Source: Protoeuglena noctilucae (taxonomy: Eukaryota). From it: a stretch of 64,000 bases of DNA. Both the position numbers and the translations under genes were made by a program. The stretch is taken from positions 806,001-870,000 of the forward strand of contig OY253686.1 in NCBI GenBank assembly GCA_958009085.1, in the 5' to 3' direction. Below, in pieces: positions 3,001 to 56,177 of the stretch (position 1 is the first letter of the stretch; each line of letters opens with the position of its first letter). Below the pieces are notes generated by a model. That model was not told the origin of the DNA. It did not search any database and was given only the letters and a program-made list of their open reading frames with translations.

Positions 3001-6000
3001 TCGCGGTGCGTGGGAGGTGGCGACTGGAGGTGAGCGGCGTGGGGGAGGAGGGCGTGGGTGTTGGATAGGGGGGATAGGTCGATGGTTGTCTCCTCAATAG
3101 ATGCATGGGCTCCATGAGTGGCCACCAGGAGAGGGGCCGGGCAGTCGATGAACTGAGACGAGATGACCTGGGGTGGGTTGGGAAACGGGGTGTTGCATGC
3201 ACAAGTGGCGTCGATGGATCAATGGCTTTGTGCTAGAAGAGTGAGTCAGCACACACCAGGCATAACCCATGCAGTCCACACCCGTTACAAGTAGCCCCCC
3301 ATGCGCTCACCTGCACCGTCGCCCCCTCTCCCTTCGCAGACACCGCCCCTGCCCCGCCGCCCTCCAACCGACACCGGACAGCAGCTGCCCGCGCCCTCGC
3401 CCCCGCCCGCACCAGCGCCGCCATCCCCGCAACCACGCAATCCACCGCTCGCACCGTCCCCCCCTCCCGCGCCTCCAGCCCCACCCCGCCCTCTCCCTCC
3501 CCCACCACCTCACACCCCGTCACCACCGCCCGCGTCCCCTCCCCCTCCGCCACCACGCCCCACCCCCGCAGACTCGCCCCATTGTCCGCCGATGGCACAT
3601 GCAGCTTCGCCCCACCCCTCACCACCAGCCCCGCCCCGCCCATGGCTGCCAGGCACCCCATCCGCACCCCCGCCACCTCTCCCCCCTCCAACACCGCCAT
3701 CCCCAGGTCTCGGGCCACCACGCCCCACGCCACCTGAGCCTCATGACCCCCCACTGTCACTCCCACGAGCGTCACCGTCGCTCCACACACCTCCACCGCC
3801 GCATCGCCCCATGCCCTCTCCTCACCCACCCCGCCGTCCTTGACATCCCTAACACTGTCAGGCACCCCCACGGCCACCTCCACAGCCACCCCCTCCACCT
3901 TCACGTCTGTGTTGTCCCGCGCTATCAGGGCACGGCTTGTGCCGCACGACAGCGAACCCCGCGCCCACGCAAAACGCGTCCCCGACCCCGTCGCCACCAC
4001 CGCAGCCCCGTTTGTGAGAGAGTCAGGTCCCATTCCATTCACCATCATGCTCGCACGCACGGTGCATCCCTGCAGCCGCGCGTGCGCCCCCCTCGCCACC
4101 GACACCGCCAGCGCCGCCCCCTCCACTGCCACCTCGCAGTCCCTCAACCGCAGCTCTGCGGGCGCACCCCGCGCCCCCCCCGACGCCGCCACGGCCCCCT
4201 CCCCGCCCCCCGTTAGCCGCACGCGCACCACGCACCCCACCGCCCGCACCCGCCCCCCGCTGACACACCCCACGGCCGGGGCCCCCTCGCAGTCCACCTC
4301 GCAATTGGACAACCCAATCTCCGACTGACGGGGCGGCGCCTCCGCCTGCCCTTGCTTGCCCACCCCCTCGGCGCTCAGGGCCGCCCCCGCCCCCGCATGC
4401 GTGACGGTGCATTCACCCAGCGACACCTGACCACCCCCCATCGCACGCGCCACCCCCTTCGCGCCCTTGCTCATCTCGCACCCCCGCAGCCCCACCGCGG
4501 ACCCCTCCCCCTCCGCGCACACCAGCGCCGCGCCACGGCTGCCCAACACCTGGCACCCCCCTGCTGCCGCCACTCCCCCCGCAGCTGCCGCCAGGCAAGG
4601 CCCAGCAGCGCCCGTCACCGTGCACCCCTGCAGCGACACGGCCGCCCCGCGACCCCGCGCCGCCGCCCCCGCCCCCTTCAATGCGCAGTCGGCGGCTGCC
4701 ACCCGCCCCGCCACCCCCGCACACACCGCCCAGGGCGCGCACCCCGCCACCGTGCAACCCTGCAGGGACACGTGACCGCCCCTCGCACCCGCGCCTGCTC
4801 CGCACCCCTCCACCGATGCCCCCTCCACCTCCACGCGCCCTCCTGCCTCTGCCCACACGCCCCCCGCCCCGCACCCAGCCACCGCTGCCCCCCGCACGGC
4901 CACGTGAGAGCCCTTCCCCCTCGCCGCCACGCCCGGGGCCCCCTCGCACTCCCGCACGGCGCAAGCTGCGTCCAGAGACACCGCCCCGCCACCCCTCGCC
5001 TCCACCCCGCCCCCCGCGCACCCCTGCACCGTCGTCCCTGCCAGCCGTGCAGTGCCTCCCTCCGCCACCACCCCCGGCCCCCGCTCAGTGCTCTCTATTC
5101 GCACGCCGCCCTCTGCCGCAAAGGCACCCCCGGCACGGCACGCCACCCCCGTACCCCCGCACCCCACCACCCCGCAGTCACGGGCGACGACCGACGACCC
5201 CAACCCCGTGGATGCCACCCCCGCTGCGCCACACTGGGTCACCTCGCATGCTGCAAGTGACACCCTCGCCCCGCCCGCGCACCGCACCCCCTCCTCCACC
5301 GCCCCCTTCACCTCGCACCCCTCCGCCTGCACCCGGGTGCGAGGGCCGTCGGCCACCATGCCCCACCCCACGCCCGTCCCAGACACCTCGGAACCCTGCA
5401 CCAGCGCCTCGGCCCCCGCCACCGCCCGCACCCCACGCCGGAAGGACCGCAGTCTGCACCCCGTCACGACAGCGGTGGCAGCTGGGCGACGGAGACCCGG
5501 GGCGGGCGACCCTCGCGGGGACTCCTCAGCAACACGCGCGCTGATGGGGTGATGACTGGTGCTGCTATGGGCAGTAGTTATCGCATGCGCACCGCTCGCG
5601 TGCACCCCCGCCGCTCCCAGCCCACTACCTTCCAAAGAGCACTCAGCGACATCCACACGGCCACCTGCCTTGGCTGCCACGCCTATGCTGCCGAAGGAGG
5701 TGCCCTCGCAGGCATGCACGCGGGCAAAGGAGGCTGGGCCTGTTACGCAGACGAGGGCGGTGGAGGGGGGGGCGGGGGAGAGGGGGGAACCGGGGCCCAG
5801 GAGGGTGCAGGCCAGGACCTGGGGGGGCAGCGAGGGGCGGATGGTGGTGTTGGAACACAAGGGGCGAGTAAGTGCATTTGTGGTGGTGCGAGCGTGTCTG
5901 AGGTGACATGAGGTGATAGGTGCTGGGCTGAACATTTGCAACACACCAGCCACCCCACCCATGCATCTCTACCATAACCAGCCACACCACCCCAACCCAC

Positions 6001-15806: not shown

Positions 15807-17311
15807 TTACGCTACCAGTCTCCCGCCGACCGCTTGCAGGAACCGCGCCACCTGCTCGAACCCGTACTTCTCCGCCACCCCCCGCGCGGTGAGCCCGCGG
15901 CCGGTGGTGGCGTTGACGTCCGCGCCCGCCAGGACCAGCGCGCGCACGCACTCCAGGTCCCCCTCCCGCGCCGCGAGGTGCAGCGCCGTCCAGCCGTCGT
16001 CCGTCCGCACCCGCGCGTCGACGCCCCACCGCACAAGCCGCCGCACGAAGGCCGGCGACGCGTTGGCGGCTGCCATGTGGAGCGCCGTGACGCCCCGGGC
16101 GGTGCGGGCGCGGGGGTCGGCCCCCGCCGCGACCAGCACCTCCGCCACGGCGAGGTGGTCGCCCTCGGCCGCGGCCAGGAAGGGCGTCTCGCCCCTCTCC
16201 GCCTCCGCGCCCGGGTTGGCCCCCTTCGCCAGCAGCAGCTGCACCACCTCCAGGTGCCCCTGCTGTGCCGCCAGGATCAGCGGCGTCTCCCCGTCCTGCG
16301 TCTCGGCCTCGAGGGGCAACCCCGCCGCGCACAGCGCCCGCACCACGTCCGTGCGCCCCGCGTACGCCGCGTCGTGCAGGGCCGTGTGCATCTCGTAGTC
16401 CTCCCAGTCGACCGAGGCACCCGCGGCAAGCAAGACGTCCACGACCGCCAGGTGCCCGCCCCGGGCCGCTGTCTCCAGCGCCGACACGCCCCCGGGCCCC
16501 ACGGCATCGACGCGGGCCCCGCAACGCAAAAGGCACGCCACGGCGCCCAGGTCCCCGTCGCCCGCCGCGCGGATGAGGCACGCGTGGAAGGCGTCCGGCT
16601 TCAGAGCGGCGCGAAACCGACGCACCACGCCGTCGTGGCCCGCTCGGCACGCCAGGTAGAGCGGGGAGTGGCCGTCGCAGTTGTCCGCCACCGGGCTTGA
16701 TCGGAGCACCAGCAGGGCCTCCGCCACGTCCTCGTGGCCCAGGCGCGCCGCGAGATGGAGCGGCGTCTCGCCGAAGCGGTCGGGCGCCGGGCGGGTGCCG
16801 GAGCGAAGGAGCTGGCGGACGCGCGGCCCGTCCCCCGCCGCGCACGCCGCGTGCAGCTCACTCCAGCGGCAAAACCACTCGAGCCACTGCCACTGGCCCT
16901 TCTTCAGCGCCTCCTCGCGCGTACACGCCGGCGGAAGCGCCGCGACGGCTTTGAGGCCCAGCGCCGCGCCCACCGCGTCCGCCTGGGCCTTGATTTCCGT
17001 GCACACCGCGCGCGCGCGTAGGAGGTCGCACAGGGGCATGCGACAGAGGACCTCCCGCGAGACGGCCTGGAAGGCCTCGGCGACCTTTGGCGGGTGCGAA
17101 GGGGACAGGGCGGCTGCGGGGGCGGGAGATGTGGGAGACGCTCGTAAACCCTAACAGACGTGACAAAGGGCGCACTCGCCCAGCGAAACAGGCGGACAGC
17201 GCGCCTGCCAAACACGGTTCATGAAAGTGACTCACCCTGCGCGTGGAGGCTCAGGCTCCCGGGCACTTGGAGCGCGGGGGGCCGCGGAACAGCGGCGGTG
17301 GTGCCCGCCAT
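15807..17311 (-). CDS. Ankyrin-repeat protein with an F-box-like N-terminal segment
   Basis: Exon 17311-17236 plus a large exon ~17113-15807. About 10 ankyrin repeats (GETPLHLAA, GWTALHLAA). EVLCRMPLCDLLRARAVCTE resembles an F-box. Confidence 0.85.
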
Positions 17312-26689: not shown

Positions 26690-29674
26690 ATGTTGCCCTC
26701 CCCGGACATTGAGGTGGTGGAGGAGGCGCGGGCGGACCCGGTCTCTGACCTGCCCCACTGCAGGTAACGACCTGCACCGCGCTGCAGCGGGGCCGACCGC
26801 GGCGACCCTCGCTCCTATACCTGCGCACCCGACAGTACTATGCCAAACTCGCTCTTGCCTTGCAGGAGCGACTGCGGGGTGCACCCCTTTTTGCGCCCCG
26901 TCCCTGCCGCCCCCAACGCCCGTCACTGTGGCCAATGCTTCTGCGTGATTTGCGATGTCCCCGCCAGGCAGTGCGCGCAATGGGGGACGGGCGTGGATGC
27001 CGGGGACCATTGCAATCGCGACACGAGGGATGAGGAAGACATGCGAGAGAGGCGGCGGGCGCGGAGGGCGCGGAGGGACGCAATGGCAGGTGCGGCAGGT
27101 GCTGGACCAATGTGCATGTTTGAAACTGCTCTGTTACTCACTAGTCACCCATGCCTCACTTGTCACTAGTCAACCGGGCACCACCTATCTCGGCATCGCT
27201 CTGCCCCTTGCGCGTAACACATTCCGCCCACCCCATCCCACTCGTGCCATCCACGCTGCCACTCTGCTGACGCACACTGCACGCAGAGTGCCCTGGGTCT
27301 GTGGCGCCCCATGCCTCGTCTCAGTCCTCCTTAGGGCACTGGCTCACGCGGCCTGGTCTGCCACGGCTGGGCAAGGCACCACAGCCGCAAGCGGGGCTCG
27401 CGGCCTGGCTCAACCACAAAGCATGCGACGTGCGTGTGGGGTTAACGACAACTCAGCCCCAGCAGCAACAACAACAGCAGGGGCGAGGCATGGGGGATGC
27501 GGGGCAGGCAGGCGGCGGGGTCCGAGTGAAAGAGGAGCCTTTCGATTGGGCATCAGTGGAGGTGTCCGATTCTGAGGTGCAGCTGGTGGCGGTGATGCGG
27601 CCACAGGCACAGCGGCGGCGGCGGAGGTTGGCTGGCAACAGCGGGGCAGGGGCGGCAGGGAATGGGTTGTCGGCATGTGAGGGTCGTGATGCGGCGGACG
27701 GGGCGGTGAATGGGAGCCCCGCCATGGCGGCGAATGGGAGTCCGGCGATGGCAGCGGTGTCGGCGGCGGATGCCAAGGCGGCCTTTGCCCGTCAGCACTT
27801 GGAACGAGAGGCCCAGGAAGCGTGAGTGCATAGGTGGCGGTGTGGGTTGTTTGACGTGTCTGCTATCATCGACTAATTACTGATGATGCCCTGCATGGTT
27901 AGAAAGACTCATTGTTGACAACTGCATGCCATATCGACTCATCACTCTGCGCTGGTTCTTGATCATCGCTGCGCCATCCCCGCCCGCAGCGCTGCGGTGG
28001 ACGAGACCCTCCGTGCCTTCATGGAATACGTGGACGGCGTTTCTAGCAGCCTCCCCCGCGACGGCGACCGTCTGCCCGCGTCCGCCAGGGGATGCGCGCC
28101 TGTGCCGGACCTGGCCAGGGTGTGCATGGCCGTGACGCTGTTTAACAAGGCGAGGGGCTGGGTGTGTCAGGGTGTGGGTGTGCATGGCAGTCATGCTGTT
28201 CAATAGGGCGAGGGGCTGGGTGTGGGTTTGCCTGGGTGTGGGTGCGGGTGTGGGTGATCTCTTGCTATCCCTTTGGGGTCTCTTGGAGCGGTCGTTACTC
28301 CTTTAGTCTCCCTCCGCTGGGCATCTCTTATATCGAATGTTACTCTTGTTGGCTACCCCTGCAGGCCCAGAAGATGACGCACTACTTTCCCACCCACGCA
28401 CAGCTGCTGCGCAAGTGCCCCAGGCAGGGGGTGTCGCTGGCCGCGTGGGTGGACGCGTACGGAGGCACCACGGCCCTCGCGCAGCACATGGGGCTGAAGG
28501 AACTGACCAAGCAGGCGAGCATGGTTTATAGTATAGGACTTGTAGTCTTCTATCTATCCAGCGTCTCACTCAGTCATATCATATCATGCTGCTTGGCATG
28601 GCCTGGCTCACTCGCGTGCTTGCACTCGCGCATCGCAGCCTCGCCACGCAGCGCCTGAGTCTTCACATCACCCCTGCCTTGCCCCGGCTCGCAGAAGCAG
28701 GGTTAACGGCGGAAGCACCTCCTCACCCCCCCGTGGGTGTGCAACCCCACCCCAGGCACAACCGATGCCGTGCCTGTAGCTGTGGCTGGCCGGGGCGTCA
28801 ACAGCGGGCCTGCCCATCATGCCGTGAATGTGGGTGCGGGCGACCATGTGCGCAGGGATGGCGGTGGGCGTGGGGGGAGGCTCCCTGCACATGCGGAGAG
28901 GGGGAGCAGCGGTTGGGCTACCTTGCCGCACTTGCCACCAACCTCATTCAGCCCACACCCCGCCACTGCCAGGCCAGGCGCGGCCGTGGCTCTCGTGTGT
29001 CACCCGAGTGCTGTGATCGTTGATGGCAGTCCTCTCAGGGAGCCCCCGACGTGCGGGCAAGCAGGCCCACTACCCTCGACCGCCCCTCCCACCCCACTTC
29101 CCCCCACCGCCCCTCCCACCCAACTACCCTCGACCGCCCCCGGCCCGCCCCTCGTGTCCGTGGTCAATCTCCCACCTCACCCCTCATCTCTATCATCTCG
29201 CCCTTCGTCCATCGCCACCCATGGCAGGGATGGCCGGCACCGTGACTGGCCTGCACCCGCACCCGCACCCGAGGGACCACGGGGCGGGCGAGGGGGGAAG
29301 AGGAGGGCGGAGGCGGAAGCACAGCAATCAGGTAAGATTTGATGACTGGGCATATCTGCGCGTCGCGTCCATCATGATGCTGCTAGGTGCTCCATCGCTG
29401 TCAGCGATGCACGTCGCACGGTCGCGCGCCCACAGGGGCCCCCCTGGCAGCCCCGACGGTGCGGGTGGTCTGCGGGGACGTCCGCGCCGAGTTCGATCCC
29501 CAGCGGTGCGTCTTCCGCGTGGACGGGCGCAGCTGGTGGGTCCAGGGGCGGACGGTGGAGCGGTTGGGGGGATGCGGGGCGGCCAAGGACTGGCGCAAGA
29601 GCGTGCGTGTCGAGGGGCCAGGCGGCGTGGAGATCGGGGAGTGGATGCGCATGTGGGGGTTCGAAGGAGGCTGA
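26690..29674 (+). CDS. Protein with N-terminal RIN13-like Cys/His domain and C-terminal SAND domain
   Basis: DLPHCRSDCGVHPF...HCGQCFCVICDVPA.QC..W....DHC at the N-terminus; VRVVCG....ERLGG.G.AKDWRKSVRV...IGEW (SAND KDWK-type motif) at the C-terminus; internal exons approximate. Confidence 0.7.
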
Positions 29675-29854
29675 TGATGGTGGCGGGACAGCGCTGTTCC
29701 GTGAGATACAGGCTGATACAGGCTGTCTTTGGCAATTGTGCCCGGGCATGCGGCAGAGCGGAAGGGCATCCGGTGAATCTCAAAGCTAGTCTCACATCCC
29801 GTATCTTGAATATCCTGCGATCTGCATGCGCGGGGATAGGGCATAGGTCCGCCC

Positions 29855-32800
29855 ATGGGTTGTGGAGCGAGCCGGCCTGCCCCTGGGGAGGGGCAGCCCC
29901 TGGCGAGGCCTGCGGAGCCTCCGCGTGTTAAGGTGACGTCTTCAGCCGTGCATGTGACGCTTTCTTTGCGTGTAACAGGAGCTGAAGCTTCAACGAACCA
30001 CGGGCGTCGCTACACGGCTAAAACATTTCGCACACATATGTGTCCTCTCAGGGGCCTGCGGGGGACGCAATCGCTCGACCAAAGTCTGCAAATAAGAGTC
30101 CGGAGCAAAATGTGCCAGCGGGCATCTCCTCACAAGCCCATGCCGAGGAGAACACTGGACAGTTGGGAAGCAATCAAATGGGAACGCCGCGCCGAGCCGA
30201 TACCCGCAACGGAGCACAGAAGGAAGCGCAGGTTCCCGCCAGTCACTTGCACGGGAGCACCGGCGACTCGGGAGGGGACGCGCGCGTTGCACTTCCCAAC
30301 CTGCAGGTGGCGATGAGCGTCTCCCCTGCGGCGTTGGCGACCGGGTCCGCCCTGGCGACGGCGCTACAGCAGTGGCGCGTTTCGGATGAGGTGCTGGGCG
30401 TGCTCCTCCGGGGCGGCATCCACGCCATGGAGGTGCTGGCACGGGCGCCCATGGTTGGCCCGCTGGCAGAGGTGGCGCCCCGCGTGCTGCAGGGGATTGC
30501 CGAGGTGAGGCGTCGCCATTGCGAGCTGCGATGGCCGGCTCTGTCATGGGGAGTGGCAGTGGATACGCACGGCAGGCGCACACACACCCCACGTGGGTGG
30601 CAGGCTTGTGACGCCCCCTTGCCCCTGCCATGGCTTGTCGGGGTGGTCACACCGCACGAGCTATGCAAGCCAGTCACGCGATCCTGCAAGCCGCGTGTGC
30701 CACCTACACGAGCCATGTAATTCGTGCACGCCATGTGTGCCATCCAAGCCCGCAGGCGGGGGCCGTGCGCCCGGCCCTGGAGGACTTCCGCGGGGTGGTG
30801 ATGGGCGTCGTGGAGGTGGTGGCCGAGGCCGGGGAGGTGCTGCAAGGCCAGCCACAGGTCCTGCAGAGACTCGTGGGTGCGAGGAGACAACGCCAGAGCT
30901 GGCCAGTAACTTAGCCCCGGCATAGCACTGCTGATGGGTCTTATCGTTCGCCCTCATCCTCATCGTCGCCCGTGGCCCTGAGTGGCAAGCGCTTGCACAC
31001 AGACGCTCAGTAGACTGCTTCTCCACCACCCCCTTGTGCCCGCAGAGCTGTTAGGGGCAGCAAGGGGCGTGGTAGAGGAGGTGGAGGGTCGGACGTGGCT
31101 GGGGCGGTTCGTGAAGGCACGAGGGGACACGGACGGCCTGCAGGAGTTGGCGGGGAAGGTGCTGGCGCAGGTCGGGACGCTCACGGCGGCGATGCAGGTG
31201 CAGTCGCTCCGGGGTATCGAAGAGATACGTGCGGCTATATCAGGAGGCAAGCTCTTCTCCAGTAAGGACCTGGCGCAGCGATTGGCGCGGGAGGCGGGGG
31301 CAGCGCGGCTGGAGGACGTGTCACCCGATCAGCTGCGAGCGCTGCTGGCGGAGCGCGGGCGGGTGGACGCGGTGGTAGCGCTGCTGGCGCCGGGGGAGCA
31401 GGTGCTCGCGGGGCTGGTGCAGGGCGTGGAGGACCGGGTGGAGCAGTTGGGGGCGCGCATGGACGAGCAGTACGCGTCGCTGATGACGCATCTGAGGATC
31501 GGTGAGGTCCTTGACCGGGAGCCCTTGGAAGTCAAGAAGCTGCCGCCGGAGCTGCGGAAATTATGGGCGGACGAAGACACGGGGTTCGGGCACATGGCGG
31601 CGGAGATGGCGTGGGGCGTGTTCCACCTGGCGCTGCTGCACGGGGAGCTGGAGGTGCTGGCGGAAGCGGCCGCGTGGTACACGGACACTCTGGCGCCACC
31701 TCAATGGCGCGACTTCGTCATCGGGCCCCTGCGGGAGCTATTGGCGCCGGGAGATCGTGTGGCGGCGCAGAACCTCTACCAGCTGGCGCAGGGCGCCAAG
31801 CGGCGGGGGAAGCTGGAGTTCGCGGAGGTGCGGCTGCAGGACGTGCTGTGGTACGTGCACGTCAACACGGCGCCGAGCGTGGGGCAGGCGGCGCCCCCAC
31901 GGCAGTCCCGGGGGCACACCTGGCGCAGGCTGGTGTCTGCGGTGTCGATTGCGAGGCGCGCGGAATGGGGTGCGGCGGCCCGGGGAGCGGAGCCGGGCCG
32001 GGGGAGCGGGCACACAGAGAGCGTGGCCGATGGCGTGGCAGTGCCGGCCGTGATTGCTGCCCTGCGCCACCACGACTTTCTGGCGGACGCAGATGCCCGT
32101 GATGCCACTTTCATGGTGGGTGGCGCAACGCGGGGCGATGGGGTGGGCCGCGAGTGTGCCTGTAGCTACTCCGCATGTGTGGCAGTCGTCTTCATGGATG
32201 ACATATGTGGTATAGAATGTCATGAAATGCTTTTGTTCTGGTCTGCAGGTGGGTACCCGGGAGTGGCTGGCCAGCCGGGTCATGGCCTGGGCCGGTGGGA
32301 GAACCGATGGGGCCACAGATGGGGCAGCAGACGCGGAGAACGGCGAGGGGTTCGAGAGCCGACTGTTCCTGCTCCTGTCTCTGCCCGGTGAGCGCTCCAA
32401 GCGAGGCGTGGTGATCGCCTGGCTGCCGCCGCTCAGAGCTTGCACGTGCTGAGGGTGTTCGTGCATGGCGGTGCGGCGCAGGTATGGGCAAGACGTCCTT
32501 CGTGGCTCACATGGCGCTGGCGATGCGCAAGGCGGGGATGCTCCTGGGCGGCCACTTCTGCCGGGCGGGGGACGAGAGCCGCATGGACCCACGCCTGGTT
32601 GTGCAGTCGCTGGCGTGGCAGGTGGTCGAGCGCGTGCCCGCGGCCATGCCTGCTGTGGAGGCGGGGCTGAAGCGCCTGGACGTGACCAGCGCTGGGATAC
32701 CCGAGTGGTGCAGGAGGTGAGGGGGGTTAGAGTCCATGAGTGGTGCAGGAGGTGGGCCAGGAGTGGGTGTGCGTGCACTGACCTGCTTGGCATCCGATGT

Positions 32801-35800
32801 CTCACTGCGCTTTGACTGACACATGACAGGAACATCACATCGTGCATGTGCCTCCCACCGCCGCAGTCTGCTCATCGAGCCCCTGCGTAGCGTGGCCTGG
32901 ACCGGCCCCGACGTGGTGCTGGTGATCGATGCGCTGGACGAGGCGGGGACGGACGCGCGCAGCAACGGGGTGCTGCAGATGCTGACGGGGTGCATGGGGG
33001 ACCTGCCCGCATGGGTCAAGGTGTTGGTCACTTCCCGGCCCGAGGCGTACATCGTGGAGCAGATGGCCCGTTTCAAGCCCTTCACGCTTGAGCCGACTGA
33101 GGAGCGCAACCGTGAGGACATCCAGGCCTTCATCCGCGGAAGCCTTCGCGGCGGGCTGACGGAAGAGGAGCGCGCCGCAGTGCTGGCGGTGGCGGCCAAG
33201 AGCGAGGGCGTCTTTGCGTATGTCTCTGCGCTGGTGGCCATGGTGCAGCGGGAGCTGTCCAGGGACGGTGGATCCGACGGACTGGCCCACCTCACCCTCT
33301 CTAACCTCCCTAAGGGACACCGGGCGCTCTACCAGGACTACTTCGATCGGCAGCTCCAGGGGCTGGGCTCGGGGGAGGTCGAGGTGGTGCGGCAGGCGCT
33401 GCTGCCATCGCTCGTGGCGGCCGTGGAGCCACTGACGGTGGCGGAGCTGAGGGAGCTGGCGGGGGACGGTGCAACGACGACGGCGCTGCAGGCAATCGGC
33501 AGCCTCTTCCCGATGGGGTCGGATGGCCGCGTGCGCCCTTTCCACAAGTCAGTCGTAGATTGGCTGGCGGAGGACCGGACGTCCGAGTGGCACGTGAAGG
33601 TAGAAAAGGGCCACGCCTGGCATGCGGCGGTGTGGGGTCACAAGGTGGAGGCGGTCGGGGCGGGTGGAGCGCCGGGCGAGTCCCTGGCATCGCTGGGGAC
33701 CTACGCGGCCACATACGCCCTGCACCACGCCCTGGAGGCGGGGATGCTCGACACGGCGGCGGCCTTGTGCACGAGCCTGGCGCTGGTGCGGGCGTGCCTG
33801 GAGGCGGGGGAGGTGGAGCGACTGGTGCGGGACGTGGGGAGGGCGACCGTGGCGCTGCGGGTGGGGGGGCACAAGGGTTGGCGGCGCGCCCAGGAGACCC
33901 AGGCCTGGCTACGGTGAGTGCAGTGGCGGTGCCTGTGCCGCCGCGGCCCTGCGTTGGCGCATAGAGTGCGAGCGGTAGTGATGATGAGCACGCGTGATAT
34001 CACTTTGCCGGTTGCCTATCCCGCAGGACCTTCTCGGCGGTGCTGGCGGAGCATCCGCATTTGGCAGCTGAGGCAGCGCGGGCCGCACCGTCCGGCACTT
34101 GGCTGGCGGAGAGCGGGGCGGCGGCACTCACATTTAGTGACGGTCCCGAGGGTACCCGCCCCGTGCGTCTCCGGTTGGAGGGGCGCATGGCCCGACTGCA
34201 GAGCCTGCAGGTGCTGGCCGTGACTTCGGGGGAGGTCACATCGGTGGCCTTCTCCCCTTCTGGGTCGCTGCTGGCCGTGGTCGCGGGGCAGACGCTCCAT
34301 TTGCACGACAGTGTCACGGGGCTTGCCCGGCAGCACCTGCCGCTGCCACCGGCAGAGGGGTCCGGGGGGCACCGGCTGTGCTTCGCCCCCGCCCCCTCTT
34401 TGCATCTAGCCACGTGGCACACCGCCGGAGCCTCGGCGCTGACGCTGTGGGAAGCGAGCTCAGGCGCACCGACGCCGCTCGACACCGAGGGGCAGCTCAC
34501 GCAGGCGTGGGACGTGAGGTTCGCGCTAGATGGGTCACATGTTGCCGCAGTGGCGGCGTCGGGGTACACGCAGTGGAGGGTGCTGGCTGGGGAGCGTTTG
34601 GTGCTTAAGGCCAACGCGTGGGCCGGGGTGCGCCGGGAGAGGCCCTGCGCGGGGTGCCTGGCGCCGGACGGGACGTGGGCGGCTGTGGGGTACGACAACG
34701 GCGCCGTGCGCATCGTGACCCTGCCCTCCTGCGCGGCGGTCGCTGAGCTGGGGCCGAGCCCGCAGAGTATTCGGGAGCTGGCCGTCAGCCCCAGCGGGCA
34801 GTGGGTCGCCGCAGCCGCAGGCAGCGTGGTGCATGTCTGGGATGTGGCCCTGCGTCAGCCGGGGCCGGTGCTGGAGGCCCACCGGCGTCACGTGGAGGAC
34901 CTGGCGTTTGAGGGGGCCGTGCTGGTGTTGCGGTCGGGGGACGGCACGGCTCTGTGGGACGCAGAGACATGGGAGGGCCTAGTGCCCATTGACGGCGTCT
35001 ATGCCAAAGCCTATGGCCCTGCCAGGCTCCACCCGCGTGTGGCCGTCGCCGGAAGAGAAGGGACCGTGGTCGTCGCCTCACCGGAGGCAGAAGACGGCGG
35101 TGCGGGGTGGGGGGTGGTGCGGGCGGGCGTGCGACCGGGGGCGGAGGTGGACGTGGCCACCGCCCGCATCCCCAGCCACGTTTTGAGTGACCCGCGGTGC
35201 CTGGCTGTCCACCCCACGGAGCCGTTGGTGGCCGTCGGCATGCCCGGCGGGCGCGTGGCTCTGTGGGACGCGACAGGCGGGGGCGGGGGCGACGACGGCG
35301 GGGGTACGGCTGTGTTGGCCGCCGCTGTCAGCGCAGACGGCGCCCTGGCTGCCGTGGGTGTCGCCGGCCCTCACGGCTCCGGCAGTGTGGTTGCGGCCGG
35401 GGAGGTGCGCGTGCTGGGCCTGTCGCCAAGCGGCCTCCGCGAGTCTGTGCTGCCGTGCCCGGCCCAGGGTGCAGTGGGGTGCGTGGCAGTCAGTGCGGAC
35501 GGCGCGCGGGTGGCCGCCATCGAGCAGGTACTACCGCCCGGCCCCTGTCAGCTGCGGGTGTGGGACGTAAACACTGGTGCCGAAGCCACGGCGACCGTGC
35601 CCGACCGCTTCGATGGCAGTGACCGCTCCCATTCTGACACCCCCGCGTCCATCGCCTTCCTGGGACCGTCGGCAGTGGTGTGCCAGCTGGACAGGGACAG
35701 TGCGATATGGAGGTGGGACTTCGCTGCATCGCTGCAGTCGCAGAACCAGGCATGTACATCCCTGGTGGATGCGCCGACCGTCGAGTCCGGGGCGATGCTG

Positions 35801-36463
35801 GCGGTGAGCCCCACTGGCGACGCTCTCCTGGCATCCGAGGGGACCCACCTGCGCATTCACGAGGCCACGGGGCAGCTGCGTGCCTCCATCGATGTGTCCC
35901 AGCACGGCCCGGTGCTACTCGCATGCTTCTCTGCAACTGGGGGCGAAGTCTTTGCCGCCCACGCATCCAGGCGCATCTCGGTTTGGAGTGCAAAGGGCGA
36001 GGCCCTCACGTCCTTCCACGCCACAGCGGCACCCGGGGGTGCATCCCAGCCCGTCACCGCCCTGGCTGCCAACGAGGCCTGGGTGGCCGTGCTGACCGGG
36101 CGCTCTCTGACGCTCTGGGATGCGTGGACAGCCCAGCACCCGGTCCCCGTGACAACGCTGCCGTTAGACCTGACCACCGTCCCTCACGGCAACCCACTGC
36201 GACTCGCTTCCCTATCGGCTGCCCGTGACCCGGGGGCCCTGCGCCTGGTGGGAGTCTCCGCTTTGCACGCGGGGGCGCCAGTGGGGCTCCGCGTCTCCGC
36301 GAATGCCCTGCGTGCGATGGCCGCTGCTGCCAAGAGAAGGGGGGAGGCGTGGGAAGGGGCGGACACCTTGACAGCTTTCACGGCGCTGGCGGGGGCGGCG
36401 GGGGCTGCCGGCGGCCACATCGCAGTGTACGTAGAGGAAGGGACGTCGGTTGTTAGCATGTGA
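29855..36463 (+). CDS. NLR-like STAND protein: MGCGAS acylation motif, MLKL/HeLo-like helical domain, NACHT NTPase, WD40 repeats
   Basis: Exons from 29855-29932, 30052-30504, 30756-~30876, 31046-32115 through the final exon ~34027-36463. Motifs: FMVGTREWL, Walker A SLPGMGKTS, HFCR, Walker B VLVIDALDE, LVTSRPE, SEGVFAYV, FHKSVVDWL, multiple WD40 blades. Confidence 0.88.
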
Positions 36464-36561
36464 AGTAGTGGTCGTAACGCCCAATTCAAACAAATGTTAG
36501 GCCAACGCCCCACCTCGCCTCCCGCTACCTTGTGCCCTGGCGAGCCACACGCGGCCGCCCC

Positions 36562-38247
36562 TCAGTTTAGCACTCCCCCCTCCCTCCACCCGCCCCGCCC
36601 CGCCCCCGCACCCGCCCCCGCACCCCCCTGCCCCGGCATGGGCGCCACCCAGGTCTGTCCCGGCGGCGGCTGCGGCGGCCGCTGCTGCCCCGCACCCGCC
36701 CCCGCCCCCGCCCCCTGTGCCCCGCGCCCCTGGGCGTAGTACTGCCGGTACGCAGCCGTGGTGTTGAGGATGAGGAGCCTCGGCCCCGGCGGGATGCGCA
36801 CCTCGGCCAGCGCCGTGTCGGTCAGCAGCAGCAGGCATTTGTCGTCCAGCTGCCCCTGCCGGAAGTTGCGCTCGTACTGCTCCAGGCCCAGGCTGCGCAG
36901 CATGTGCGACGTGCGCACGTAGTCCTCGTCCTTCGCCTGGGCGACACGGAGGGGACGAATGCTGACAAGTATGGGAAACAACAAGCAACAAGGAGCGTGG
37001 TGTACTAGTACAATCGAACACCCTTCGCAGCTGCGGTGCGTCTTGCAGGCACTGAAGCGCTGCCGTATGTACAACTGGCTGCGTTCACCACCCGCACCTT
37101 CTTGTCCCCTCCCTTGAACGCCTGCCCTATTTTGAAAAAGGCCGCATTGAAGACCCCGAACATGGCGCCCGTACCCAGGGCCGCGTCGATGGTGGGGCCG
37201 CGGGGGGTGCCCAGGGCGGAGACCACCGAAAAGACCACGCCTGGAGAGGCGGCAAGGGGGGCGGCGTGTGTGGAAAGATTGATCGGAATGTGCTGTGAAG
37301 ATGTGTGTGCTGTGAACGTCGAGGACGCCCGGTGCAACTTGGATGGCTGCGTGGCGCGCGTCGCCACTGCTGGTGCCATCTTGTTGAACATCCCAACATC
37401 GTGTGTGCACATCTCATCTCAACGCCCCTCACCCGACGCGGCAGACCCCACCACCGTGTTCCACATGTCCTCGTCCCCCGTGCCACGCTGCAGCTTGCTG
37501 TACTCGGTCACGGCCGTCTGGGCGAACATCAGCGCGCCGATGTTGGCAGCGAAACGTAGCGGATTGGAGCTGCGGGACAAAGGGAGGTGCCCGGCGGGTC
37601 GCGGGGCGCGCGTGCGGGTGTGAACGCGTCGCGCAGCGGCAATGCCCAGCGAGTCGGCCTACCGCCGCGTCGGCCCTCGCCTGCCCATCTGCTCCATCGC
37701 CTGGAGTTGCGACTGCATCAGAGGGTTGTTCGCGGCCGCCGGGTTGTCCTTGTTGAGCTCCATCGCGGAGCTGTTGAGCTTCCCGAGCAGGACGCCGAAC
37801 GCCATCGCTGGGAGGGCGGCTGCCACGCCCTTGAAGATTGGCTTCACGTACGCTGGCTGCGAATCCACAAACTTGTCCACTGCGCGGGCAGCGCGGGCGC
37901 GGCGAGGGTCACGGGCCGGCGCGGGGAGGCATCGACGGCAGCTCACGATGGCGTGGCCCGCCCCGCGCCGTTGGGCCGAGGGGCCGGAGGCTGGGTGAGC
38001 AGATGCATCGCATGATGTGCTCTGATCCTCAACGCGGCCCGAAATAAGCGCGTGATCTCGGGGGGCGAGCGCTAGACCGCGTGACACTGGTGCAGCGCGT
38101 CACGGGGTGAGCGGCGCCAGCACGCAGCTGGAAGGTTCCGTAGCGGCAGCCGGGCGTCAAATATGTCTCTCGATCAATCCATCGGCCCTCACCCGACGCC
38201 CTCATGTCGTCCAACTTCTCCTGGACGGCCTTGATGGCGTCGCCCAT
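36562..38247 (-). CDS. Tim17/Tim22 (PRAT) family protein with C-terminal SAM domain (HP30/TRIC-like)
   Basis: PRAT transmembrane segments (EDMWNTVVGSAASGVVFS, GAMFGVFNAAFFKIG) followed by the SAM domain (MLRSLGLEQYERNFRQGQLDD..LLLTD.AL.EVRIPPGPRLLIL). Confidence 0.9.
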
Positions 38248-38516
38248 CGCCGCCCGCGCCTGCTCCCGCGCGCCCTGACAAGGGTCGTTACAAAAAGCTT
38301 CGCAGTGTCCACTCTGCTGGTCGCTGAGAGCACTCGCGCCCCCTCAGCGACCGGACCGTCTCGTGCCGCACTGCAAGTTGTGTCACCAGCACAACAGCGA
38401 AAATCCCCCGCGCTGCATTCACAGCTCGACGCGTTAGCTACAGGCACACTTGCACTCGGCTCGCGGCCGCCAAAGGACCCCAGGCGTTGGAAGGAGCCTT
38501 CGCCAAAAGTGGGCGC

Positions 38517-48171: not shown

Positions 48172-48852
48172 AGGAAAACGGCCCCGCGCGGCGCGGGCGG
48201 GCCGGGGAGCGCGGGGGCCGCGGGGCCAAGCCGCCGCCTGCTCCCCGCGACGCCCGGGGCCCCGCCGGCGGATCGAGGGGCCGGAGATCGAGGGAAGGAG
48301 CAAGGGGGCCGGCCGTGAAGAGGGCACGGCGCGGCTGGAAAGAGGAAAACGAAAAAAGACGCCGACCAGGTCGAATCGAACGACTCACGCGCTAGCGTGC
48401 TACGGGTTTGAAGCCCGCACCCGGCACCAGCCGGGATCAGGTTGGCATTGCGGGCCGGGCGGCGCCGCTCGTCGCTTGGGCAGCAGGCGCAGAGAACCAG
48501 CATCCCACTCACCCAGAAGGACCTCACTCACCTGCTGACGCGCAAACTGGGGAGCGGGCGGTGGGCGGGCGGCAGGAGAGAAGCGGCTTCGGCGACACCG
48601 GGTTCTGGTCCCCGGCGCCCCTACCCGACGCTTTCCGAGGCTCATGTGGCGTCTATGGGTGGCTACACCGTAGCAACGACCAGGAGCACGGGTGGTGTCA
48701 GCAACGGAGCACTGAGGGCGAACGCAGAGCGCACTCCTGTCACGGGGACTGTGCCGCCGCTCTGCAACCACGATTCTTTCCTCGCAAGCACCCACAGCTT
48801 GCTAAGCCATCGCTGGGTAGGGTCGACGGACCGCTCGCCCTTTAGGGGCTCC

Positions 48853-53355: not shown

Positions 53356-56177
53356 ATGCCGGGACAGAAGCTCCCCGACACGCGGGACAGCACGCCCACG
53401 CTCACGACCAACGAGGGCGCCCCGGTGTTCGACAACGTCAACAGTTGGACCATCGGCAGGTCCGGGCCCATCGTCATCCAGGACGCGCACTTCATCGAGA
53501 AGCTGGGCCAGCTCTCGCGCGAGAAGGTTCCCGAGCGCGTCGTCCACGCGCGCGGGGTGGCCGCGAAGGGTTACTTCGAGGTATGAGGCGGGCACGTATG
53601 CAAGGGTCACGCAACCGAACGTTTGCGTGGGCCCCGCCCGCGCCCGATACACATTTCCGGTTTGCCTCCGCAGGTCACGGATGACATCACCGAGTTCTCC
53701 TGCGCCGACGTCTTCCGCGAGGTGGGCGCCAAGACGCCCGTCTTCACGCGCTTCTCTGTCGTCACCCACTCCAAGGACGTCCCCGAGTCGATCCGAGACG
53801 TGCGCGGGTTCGCCGTCAAGGCAAGCGAGAGTGCTTTTAGTATCTCCAATCACCCAAAGCAGCAACGCGTTGCTGTGGGTAATGGCCACCGCGTGCCCCG
53901 CCATCGCAGTTCTACACTCGCCAGGGCAACTGGGACCTGGTCGGCAACAACATCCCCGTCTTCTTCGTCAGGGATTCGATCGAATTCCCCGATCTCGTGC
54001 ACTGCCTCAACGTGGACCCCCAGACCAACGTCCAGGCGAGGAGGCACAGCAGACACGCATGTCAGGTGTCACGGTGCCTTGTGCAGGAGTAACTGGACCT
54101 GTGGCAGGGTGGCTGCCATGAAGCGAGCACTGTTGTCGCCTGCGCTGCCCCCTGCTCTCCTCACTCACACCCAGCTTCGCTCTCCCCATCACTACATCCT
54201 CGTCCACCCCATCTCTTCCCTCCACCTTACCCCCCCAGGAGGGCTGGCGCATCATGGACTACCTGAGCCACCACCCCGAGTCCTGCCACATGCTGACCTT
54301 CCTCTTCGACGACGTCGGCGTCCCCGCCAGCTACCGCCACATGGACGGCTTCGGCGTCAACACCTTCGTGTTGGTCAATGCCCAGGGACGTGAGCGCCTC
54401 GCCAAGTTCCACTGGCTGACGCGGCAGGGCGTGCAGTGTTTGATGGACGAGGAGGCGGCGCAGGCGGGGGGCAAGCAGCACAACTTCGCCACCCTGGACC
54501 TCTTCCAGGCCATCGCGCGTGGGGAGTCCCCCGAGTGGAGACTCTGCATCCAGGCGAGGGGTGGGGGGGGCGGGGGTGATGTGGGAGATGATTGAACTTG
54601 CATGGCAGCGGCATGTCTGAGCCCATGCCTGCTTATAGCAGGGTCGAAGGGATGCGCCTATGCTCTTGCGTGACCCTGGCCACCCCTGCCCATACCCCTC
54701 CCTTCTTCCCAGATCCTTCACCCTGAGTGTGTTCACTGCTCTCACCACCCCAACCCCCACATCCCTACTCTCCCCCCAGATCCTGGACCCCGACCGCGCG
54801 GGTGACCCGTCATCCTCACAACGCTGTGCTCACCGCTCTCACCACCCCACCACCCACGCCTCCTCCCTCTCAGGTCCTGGATCCCGAGCGCGCGGGTGAC
54901 CTCTCCTTCGACCCCCTGGACCCCACGAAGACGTGGCCCGAGGACCAGTTCCCCCTCATCCCCGTGGGCAAGATGGTCCTGGACACCAACGTCGACAACT
55001 TCCACAATGAGACGGAGCAAGTCGCCTTCTGCCCCGCCAACGTCGTCCCGGGAATCGACTTCTCCGACGACAAGTGAGATGATCGTGTCATGCATATGGC
55101 AGGCGATGCATATGGCAGGCGATGCATGGGTATGTGGCTGTACATGTGTCAACTACACCGACTTCTCCAACGACAAGTGAGCGATACTAGTGGCAGGCGA
55201 TGCATGTGGCGGTGTCAGCTGGGATGCAGAGGGTGATGATCATGTCGTGGCAGTCGCCGCATGTGGCTGTGTCAGTCACAGCTGGGATGCACCCATGCGC
55301 ATGCGTGCTGTCGCTTGCGCACACCTTAACTGTGCCTGGTGGCTGTAGAACCGTGGCTGTCGTTAACGTTGGCATGCGCCCGGTTGCCACCCCGACCGAC
55401 TCGCTACACACGCACACGCACACGCACACATCACCCCCCTCTCTCCCCACCCCCACCCCCAGGCTCCTCCAGGGCCGCATCTTCTCCTACCAGGACACCC
55501 AGCGCTACCGCATCGGCACCAACTTCCAAATGCTCCCCGTCAACGCCCCCCAGTGCCCCTTCCATTTGAACAACATCAACGGGGCCATGAACTTCAGCCA
55601 CCGGGAGGGCAACGTCAACTACTACCCATCGCACCGGGAGCATGCACGCGAGGCAGAGCGCTTCCCCGTCAGCCAGCAGCGGCACGAGGGGCCCAAGACC
55701 AAGCAGCGCATTGAGAAGGAGAACAACTTCCAGCAGGCGGGGGAGCGGTGGCGGTCGTGGGACCATGGGCGCCAGCAGCGCTTCGTCAAGCACTTCTGCG
55801 AAAAACTCTGCGACCCGAGGCGAGGCATGCACGGCGAGGGTGACACCCGATAGGCGCAGGCGCGGCACGCGTCGGGTCATCGGCAGCAGTGATGCGTGTT
55901 GGTATCGCCTTGTGGTCATCCCTCTCTCAAGCTGCCTTCTCAAGTGTCAATGCCTCGTCGCACGTCGCCCCGTCTCCCCACACCGCTGCCCAGCCCAGCC
56001 CTGCCTCGTTGCCCCTGCAGGACGCCCTGGGAGGCGCAGGACCTTTGGGTCGAGTACTGGACGCAGTGCGACCAGACGCTGGGGCAGATGGTCAAGGAGC
56101 GGGTGCAGGAGGCGCGCAAGGGGCGCGACGGGGCGGCCCTGCCCCCGGCTGCCGCACAGGCGCACGGCAAGGCGTGA
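53356..56177 (+). CDS. CAT: Monofunctional haem catalase
   Basis: [13 protein letters not shown] (distal His), [46 protein letters not shown] (proximal Tyr); seven coding exons; probable 5'UTR intron ~53200-53348. Confidence 0.97.

Follow-up and report, generated by a model that had tools for sequence, protein, structure and literature searches.

A putatively lipid-anchored MLKL-like–NACHT–WD40 protein encoded in the genome of Protoeuglena noctilucae

The gene described here occupies positions 29855-36463 of the forward strand in a 64-kb stretch of Protoeuglena noctilucae DNA (contig OY253686.1, 806,001 to 870,000), referred to throughout as the window and numbered from its first letter. Its eight exons, joined conceptually across seven introns, give a single frame of 1774 codons (5325 nt) whose sole stop is terminal and ends at 36463. 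The predicted product would carry, in order, an N-terminus with Gly2 and Cys3, a helical effector resembling MLKL_N and the helical linker after it, a middle domain, an NPHP3_N-type NACHT module, and a degenerate WD40 region. An earlier note on this DNA, made from the sequence alone, had proposed an effector-NACHT-WD40 layout of this kind. The layout is borne out by Pfam domains, by the 1774-codon frame, and by a single high-scoring segment pair (HSP) with P0010, a homologous protein.

Gene structure, transcription and relatives

The exon model (Table 1) was built from the stop-to-stop frames of the plus strand between 29.8 and 36.5 kb, together with the raw sequence. All seven introns are of the GT..AG type; their donors read GTG(A/C/G)xx and their acceptors YGCAG. 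The GC content is 70-74% in exons and 56-69% in introns. Transcription was followed in RNA contigs from four marine metatranscriptome runs of one study, in which 10-44% of the sampled words of the locus are present. These contigs were aligned on 28000-38500 with a depth of ~3-5 at this gene, and the statements made here cover the contigs listed.

Two splices with GT..AG borders are seen in the RNA contigs, 32386/7 to 32481/2 (the 32387/32482 joint lies in a contig of run X1) and 32714-6 to 32865-7, while a further contig (35408-36334) runs unbroken within exon 8. RNA joints for introns 1, 2, 3, 4, and 7 were not found among the contigs listed at this depth. Unspliced contigs lie over introns 1, 2, and 4 (29999-30275, 30448-30723, and 31939-32179, respectively), hence the libraries also contain pre-mRNA or DNA and coverage alone proves little. 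The structure of exons 2-8, transcription of the gene, and two of its splices are established by these observations together with the alignments to relatives described below.

Two further splice candidates were set aside. A donor GTACGT at 31851 was rejected because the motif WYVHVN is conserved and the frame of the relatives is uninterrupted there. An RNA joint from 35303 to 36381 (GT..CA, side 21), present in run X4 only, was discounted as foreign or repeat-driven. Separately, one X1 contig (depth 3.7, side 30) skips 101 nt with CT..AC ends at 30486-30588, equivalent to a GT..AG intron of the minus strand, and may reflect an antisense transcript over exon 2 and intron 2. Contigs of runs X1, X2, and X4 diverge from the window at 36404-36405, 56 nt before the stop, and share one continuation, which has no match anywhere in the 64-kb window at up to 3 mismatches. 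The divergence could stem from a chimeric contig at the GC-rich repeat or from an allele or paralogue whose C-terminus differs.

A full HMMER search with the exon-4 piece (267 residues) over 1.84 billion cluster representatives returned 12 proteins at E <= 0.001, the window's own frame among them. One of these, P0011, matches in six stretches through its WD repeats and in the authors' judgement is not a family member. The relatives are all open reading frames (ORFs) called in assemblies of ENA, Logan, or JGI, the longest contig measuring 1.27 Mb. A search restricted to longer proteins with the exon-4 piece gave one relative. Profile A2, which is built from 11 family sequences, found nothing among proteins of 1960-5000 residues, and a search with it for near relatives returned two members already known. 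Scans of metagenome contigs and viral contigs with the exon-4 piece and P0010, which are sensitive to close relatives only, gave no relative.

P0010 (1119 residues) is the most informative of these proteins because a single open frame carries it from its start across the helices and the NACHT. Its HSP with the conceptual product (66-944 vs. 176-1044, 37% identity, E 5e-140) spans the junctions between exons 2/3, 3/4, 4/5, 5/6, and 6/7. The HSP of P0007 covers product residues 67-380 (E 4e-32), and P0007, P0017, and P0013 likewise span the first junctions. The individual exons are recovered as well: phmmer with P0010 finds exons 7 (E 1e-89), 4, 6, 5 (E 0.004), and weakly 2, all collinear, and with P0017 finds exon 5 (E 0.014). 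The end of exon 2 (residues 41-66) matches P0007 55-80 in BLASTP (42% identity, E 0.001), and the family hidden Markov model picks the exon-3 ORF from among 1435 window ORFs (E 1e-4), at profile positions just preceding those of exon 4. At the exon 4/5 junction, FM/VGTREWL corresponds to the contiguous GFMPGTRAWL of P0010. P0010 turns non-homologous immediately after ..LRWLR, exactly at the end of window exon 7 (..QAWLR/GTGAGT), which indicates read-through into an intron whose position is common to both genes. P0010 also has ~150 extra residues between its MGCGAS start and the MLKL-like region, including a compact helical stretch (25-95) that is absent from the window gene and to which no Pfam family was assigned.

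Table 1. Position and content of the parts of the gene, followed by other genes of the window.
Feature	Position	Strand	Remarks
Proposed exon 1	29855-29932	+	MGCGAS.., 26 codons, Gly2/Cys3 dual-acylation-type start; donor AAG/GTGACG; GC 73% vs. 59% in the next intron
Proposed intron 1	29933-30306	+	374 nt, GT..AG; acceptor CTGCAG resembles those of the other six introns
Exon 2	30307-30504	+	N-terminal helices with conserved AP(M/L/F)V(G/A)P(L/V)A helix; alternative ATG at 30313; inside the single P0010 and P0007 HSPs
Exon 3	30756-30876	+	second/third helix of the MLKL-like region; HSPs of P0010, P0007, P0017, and P0013 span both junctions
Exon 4 (whole)	31046-32115	+	end of helix 3 through pre-NACHT motif
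Exon 4, start	31046-31206	+	MLKL-like region: last part of helix 3, then motif RTWLGRFVKA and helix 4
Helical linker	31207-31521	+	brace-like; length varies among relatives (alignment A1); pLDDT 45-64
Middle domain	31522-31869	+	~116 residues, conserved, family unassigned; invariant L, W, W
Exon 4, end	31870-32115	+	low-complexity linker, then conserved pre-NACHT motif (..HHDFLADADARDATFM); frame open in window, P0001, and P0003
Exon 5	32249-32387	+	helix preceding the NACHT; Walker A, first half (..LLLSLPG); 3' junction in RNA
Exon 6	32482-32716	+	P-loop MGKTS.., first part of NACHT; NPHP3_N 28.0 bits; both flanking joints in RNA
Exon 7	32867-33913	+	NACHT module: Walker B (VVLVIDALDEAG), sensor TSRP, and winged helix
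Exon 8	34027-36463	+	degenerate WD40 blades, ~813 codons, followed by a short tail at the C-terminus and the stop
Right-handed beta-helix protein	3236-5968	-	other window gene
Ankyrin-repeat protein	15810-17150	-	Ank_2 193.9 bits
Catalase, multi-exon	53587-55850	+	other window gene

The N-terminal region

The MGCGAS start claimed in the earlier note can be read at 29855 (ATG GGT TGT GGA GCG AGC), with an in-frame TAG 15 nt upstream. N-myristoylation favours Met-Gly followed by a small residue at position 6 and no Pro at position 7, while a Cys at position 3 suits palmitoylation. The sequence M-G-C-G-A-S-R at 29855-29875 has all of these properties. The frame is kept across intron 1, with the donor at 29932/3 and the acceptor at 30306/7, and a single MGCGA pattern is present on the two strands of the window (128 kb), where 0.03 would be expected; at least one arises in 3 of 100 shuffles. 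P0010 and its variants P0015 and P0016 (contigs of 3655-4117 nt) also open with MGCGAS and continue without a break through the MLKL-like region into the NACHT. Because the splice sites are in frame and match the consensus, and a 37%-identical homologue begins with MGCGAS, exon 1 probably belongs to the gene. Its use as the true start and the lipidation of Gly2 and Cys3 are putative.

Several observations weigh against this assignment and favour translation from the ATG at 30313 (MSVSPAAL..), which would yield a soluble protein lacking the lipid motif, with MGCGAS being an unrelated short frame in intergenic DNA or in the 3' untranslated region of the upstream gene. Neither a joint from 29932 to 30307 nor any cover of 29824-29998 occurs among the RNA contigs listed. 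The contig 29999-30275 sits unspliced within intron 1, and contigs of three runs that belong to the upstream gene end at 29815-29823, 32-40 nt before the MGCGAS ATG. The GC content at third codon positions is 0.65 in exon 1, although over 26 codons only, vs. 0.78-0.92 in the other exons, and the N-terminal HSP with P0010 (1-123 vs. 1-123) is weak (E 0.29). However, MGCGAS lies on the correct strand and 452 nt upstream, its donor fits the consensus, the consensus acceptor keeps the frame, and all six residues are identical to the start of a 37%-identical homologue of continuous frame. Moreover, an unspliced leader from 29999 would bear several upstream ATGs. A start at 30313 is considered fairly unlikely.

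The helical text quoted in the earlier note is real and is spread over three exons (exon 2, exon 3, and the start of exon 4). The note likened it to the MLKL, RPW8, and HeLo four-helix domains, and the likeness to MLKL emerges from the family while the window's own pieces do not display it. Among PDB sequences, all 7 distinct ones that profile A2 matches at E<=10 are MLKL, the best at E 1.5e-6. Profile columns 53-116 align with human MLKL residues 60-123, corresponding to the start of exon 4 and including the loop motif. Pfam MLKL_N (PF22215) is found at E<=1 and at the aligned place in six of eight relatives, with scores of 29.8 bits in P0013 (cut-off 27), 26.9 in P0008, 18.4 in P0007, 15.2 in P0010, 14.5 in P0003, and 11.8 in P0009. 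A language-model atlas places P0010 150-310 beside two clusters, one at 0.94 with 201 shared features, in which 36% of members carry MLKL_N, and one at 0.91, in which 22% do, while streptophyte MLKL_N/RPW8 clusters lie farther away (0.85-0.88). The atlas clusters nearest to window exon 4 are all fungal NOD-like receptor (NLR) N-terminal families, although their scores of 0.75-0.78 make this a lead only. The exon-4 piece reaches P0008 (E 3.9e-12) and P0013 (E 9.6e-5), both of which match MLKL_N. The window is thus connected to MLKL_N transitively, as its own pieces miss MLKL and these relatives reach it. On this basis the N-terminal region is very likely homologous to MLKL_N at the level of the family, with a putative four-helix-bundle fold.

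A different view holds that the head is unrelated to MLKL and is instead a lineage-specific helical domain, or one of death-fold or EF-hand-like type, with an output such as adaptor recruitment, the MLKL matches being due to helical composition. Searched against PDB on its own, window exon 4 gives no MLKL, its best matches being antibody chains (E 0.24), and the N-terminal exon pieces scanned singly have no Pfam match, the domain being split over three exons. MLKL_N is absent from two of the eight relatives, and where sequence does match it covers helices 3-4 only (MLKL 60-123). Furthermore, the helix that would open the bundle does not lie at the very N-terminus here, in contrast to MLKL and HeLo. 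The narrower profile A4, made from the six closest sequences (the window's subfamily), matches the FADD death domain rather than MLKL (10 of 13 matched sequences, residues 90-159, best E 0.0099).

Structure prediction adds little. An AlphaFold2 model of P0007 from 11 aligned sequences predicts helices, but with a predicted local distance difference test (pLDDT) score of 40-55 over residues 35-180 (mean 58.9). Fold searches with this low-confidence bundle retrieve generic helical hairpins only (best Z 9.2), and Foldseek retrieves nothing at E<=0.001. As the bundle model is unreliable, these searches are uninformative.

The FADD match nonetheless lies in a stretch that differs by ~16 residues in length among relatives, and it is absent from the matches of the wider profile A2, which at up to E 10 returns MLKL alone. 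Pfam Death was not found in the window, the relatives, or the middle domain, and the death-domain lead was judged probably due to chance. In contrast, three independent methods agree on MLKL_N for one aligned stretch. A head that is not homologous to MLKL is thus regarded as improbable.

The middle domain, part of exon 4, is conserved across the family and is modelled by AlphaFold2 at pLDDT 91-98. It has no Pfam match at E<=10, EF-hand included. Its best fold neighbour is CBL (6xar_A residues 177-262, Z 7.7, root-mean-square deviation (rmsd) 2.4, 84 residues aligned), a segment taken here to be the EF-hand of the TKB domain, and calmodulin (4e50_A) follows with Z 5.6, rmsd 3.1, and 77 residues aligned. 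Foldseek gives weak EF-hand rows only (E >= 0.36). This resemblance to an EF-hand pair could be counted in favour of an EF-hand-like head, but the would-be Ca2+-ligand positions, read directly from the model loops, are not acidic. It is possible, from the model, that the middle domain is a degenerate EF-hand-pair fold outside the present Pfam families.

NACHT and WD40 modules

The atypical Walker A motif SLPGMGKTS of the NACHT, as described in the earlier note, is interrupted in the DNA and is created by the RNA-supported joint of 32387 to 32482. Relative to the Walker A consensus GxxxxGK[ST], Ser replaces the first Gly. SLPGMGKT is common to the window, P0010, and P0017, which makes this substitution a family trait. 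The module also contains a Walker B motif, VVLVIDALDEAG (DALDE), and a VTSRP sensor. NPHP3_N exceeds its cut-off of 24.8 bits on both NACHT exon pieces (28.0 and 27.6 bits in exons 6 and 7, respectively) and scores 63.1 bits in P0010. In exon 7, Pfam NACHT reaches 18.6 bits, under its cut-off of 26.7, and the HTH_TANC1 winged helix 19.4 bits, also below cut-off. The window NACHT exon has no match at E <= 0.01 among PDB sequences. By profile and motif, the module is an NPHP3_N-type NACHT/STAND P-loop NTPase with Walker A and Walker B.

The large WD40 region is confirmed by Pfam WD40 (PF00400), which scores 52.5 bits against a cut-off of 27 in the 821-codon last frame. Sixteen propeller-family matches cover residues 66-702 of this frame, so that degenerate blades span ~640 residues, and nine [WFY]D blade ends were counted in exon 8. 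The identity as a WD40 beta-propeller follows from these profiles, with about two propellers' worth of blades predicted. Tandem Repeats Finder reports no array in 34027-36463 at a score of 40 or more, therefore nothing like the hypervariable repeats of HET-E type is present. The comparison with fungal HET-E drawn in the earlier note consequently holds for the order of domains but not beyond it, as the region lacks highly similar tandem WD repeats.

These same modules admit a reading in which the protein is not an immune or death receptor but a scaffold like NPHP3, NWD1, or TANC that is directed to a membrane or the flagellum, with the anchor serving localisation, the helices forming an assembly coiled coil, and the WD40 blades binding partners. 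NPHP3 is N-myristoylated for ciliary targeting and has an N-terminal helical region. Its NPHP3_N domain is the best Pfam NTPase model here, the winged helix is weakly TANC1-like, and the degenerate WD40 blades give no hint that repeats have diversified. The gene is present as a single copy in the window, and no PADLOC defence model was matched by the NACHT exon or P0010, while the WD40 frame gave one marginal HEAT-ARM row. Conversely, the NPHP3_N model also fits fungal NACHT-WD40 death receptors, and NPHP3 itself differs in its TPR repeats, its ciliary role, and its lack of MLKL_N similarity. The family profile and three relatives indicate MLKL_N specifically rather than generic coiled coils. 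In addition, the family is tiny and patchy, at 12 proteins in 1.84 billion representatives, unlike conserved ciliary machinery. A scaffold function is therefore viewed as distinctly unlikely.

The neighbours of the gene are ordinary nuclear genes: an upstream tandem gene on the plus strand, a convergent SAM gene, and genes for catalase, ankyrin, beta-helix, RING, and Nop25 proteins. The upstream gene (28000-29823) has at least three introns, one of which is clearly GT..AG at 29332-29435, and its RNA contigs end, in three runs, so close to the MGCGAS ATG that the two transcription units must be very tightly spaced or overlap. The convergent neighbour (36565-37413, minus strand; SAM_1 28.1 bits) shows four minus-strand introns in RNA at a depth above that of the NLR gene. 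Just past the gene, CCCGCC-type microsatellites at 36587-36715 reach a depth of 540 in run X2, a pile-up that probably consists of contigs of other organisms drawn by low complexity. A selenocysteine tRNA gene lies at 48360-48446 on the minus strand (Rfam 77.9 bits; ARAGORN anticodon TCA), which shows that the host uses selenoproteins. Selenoproteins are used by many algae but are not known from land plants or fungi. Together with the presence of the locus in marine metatranscriptomes, this gene is compatible with a marine alga as the host.

Proposed function and relation to known systems

On the profile matches, the NACHT and WD40 identities of the product are established and its kinship with MLKL_N is supported at the family level, and the domain order suggests how the protein may act. 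The reading judged to have slightly better than an even chance is that of a single expressed gene for a 1774-residue STAND/NLR-type switch, combining an acylated-type N-terminus, an MLKL_N-like head, a NACHT, and a WD40 region, and acting by membrane attack. In the resting state, myristate on Gly2 and palmitate on Cys3 would hold the protein at the membrane, and the WD40 region would keep the NACHT closed until it binds a ligand, which may be altered self or a product of viral or other foreign origin. The NACHT would then oligomerise in a nucleotide-dependent manner and bring the MLKL-like heads into a cluster. The clustered heads could disturb or permeabilise the membrane, leading to cell death or an ion signal and hence to abortive infection. 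We infer ligand sensing, oligomerisation, membrane attack, and a cell-death or anti-pathogen role by analogy with fungal HeLo/HELL NLRs and MLKL in the available parts of PMC10197012 and with the MLKL-like N-termini of basidiomycete NLRs in those of PMC9815663.

The closest known systems are fungal. NLRs that join a HeLo-like or MLKL-like (BaMLKL, Goodbye-like) N-terminus to a NACHT and to WD40, ANK, or TPR repeats are described in fungi (PMC9815663 and PMC10197012), where the combination as such is well known. These NLRs share the three-part order of an MLKL-related effector, a NACHT of the NPHP3_N kind, and WD40, and in BaMLKL and Goodbye-like domains extra helices come before the bundle, as is the case here. 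The present protein differs from them in its non-fungal host, a selenocysteine-using marine eukaryote, in its Gly2/Cys3 acylation-type start, in its ~116-residue middle domain without a Pfam model, and in belonging to a family of ~11 cluster representatives. HET-E has highly conserved tandem WD repeats, of which there are none here.

Animal MLKL consists of a four-helix bundle, a brace, and a pseudokinase regulator phosphorylated by RIPK3, in place of which the protein described here has a fused NACHT-WD40. The loop motif of MLKL reads RSNICRFLTA and that of the window gene RTWLGRFVKA, and both proteins have a helical linker after the bundle. The window product additionally has an N-terminal extension with the lipid motif, and its helices 1-2 are not matched to MLKL by sequence. 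Plant RPW8-type NLRs such as ADR1 and NRG1 are a further parallel, with a head of the MLKL/RPW8 superfamily on a STAND NTPase acting at the plasma membrane, but with NB-ARC and LRR in place of NACHT and WD40. Pfam RPW8 was not matched in the window or the eight relatives; its sole occurrence is on 16% of the members of a distant atlas cluster at a score of 0.85. Anchoring of an NLR by lipid also has a precedent, as RPS5-type CC-NLRs, which have coiled-coil (CC) N-termini, are held by N-terminal myristoyl and palmitoyl groups.

NLR-like proteins that combine MLKL_N with conserved repeats are depicted in Fig. 8c of PMC13449251. Chlorophyte NLR-like genes were surveyed in 2026 with TIR, RPW8, CC, NB-ARC, and NACHT profiles but not with MLKL_N, going by the available text of PMC13315243. 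A description of an algal MLKL-NACHT-WD40 protein was not found in the open literature, subscription journals being outside the search. What is new is the host lineage, the acylation-type start common to distant members, the extra middle domain, and the very narrow family.

It has long been asked how unicellular phytoplankton detect infection and carry out cell death, and few candidate executioners are available. The gene is a concrete candidate, as it would place a sensor and an MLKL-type effector on one chain with a predicted lipid anchor. It would also extend the design of an MLKL, HeLo, or RPW8 head on a STAND NTPase, found in fungi and plants, to another eukaryotic lineage, in which immunity of this kind has hardly been studied, on a NACHT-WD40 chassis and with an additional conserved domain yet to be placed in a family. 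A bolder version, which is rather doubtful but worth stating, is that a small clade of marine microalgae has a single-chain necroptosis-like executioner, a myristate- and palmitate-anchored NLR in which a viral product acting on the WD40 region triggers NACHT oligomerisation and fires an MLKL-type bundle through the new middle domain. If this were true, the protein would be the missing pore-forming effector of virus-induced phytoplankton death.

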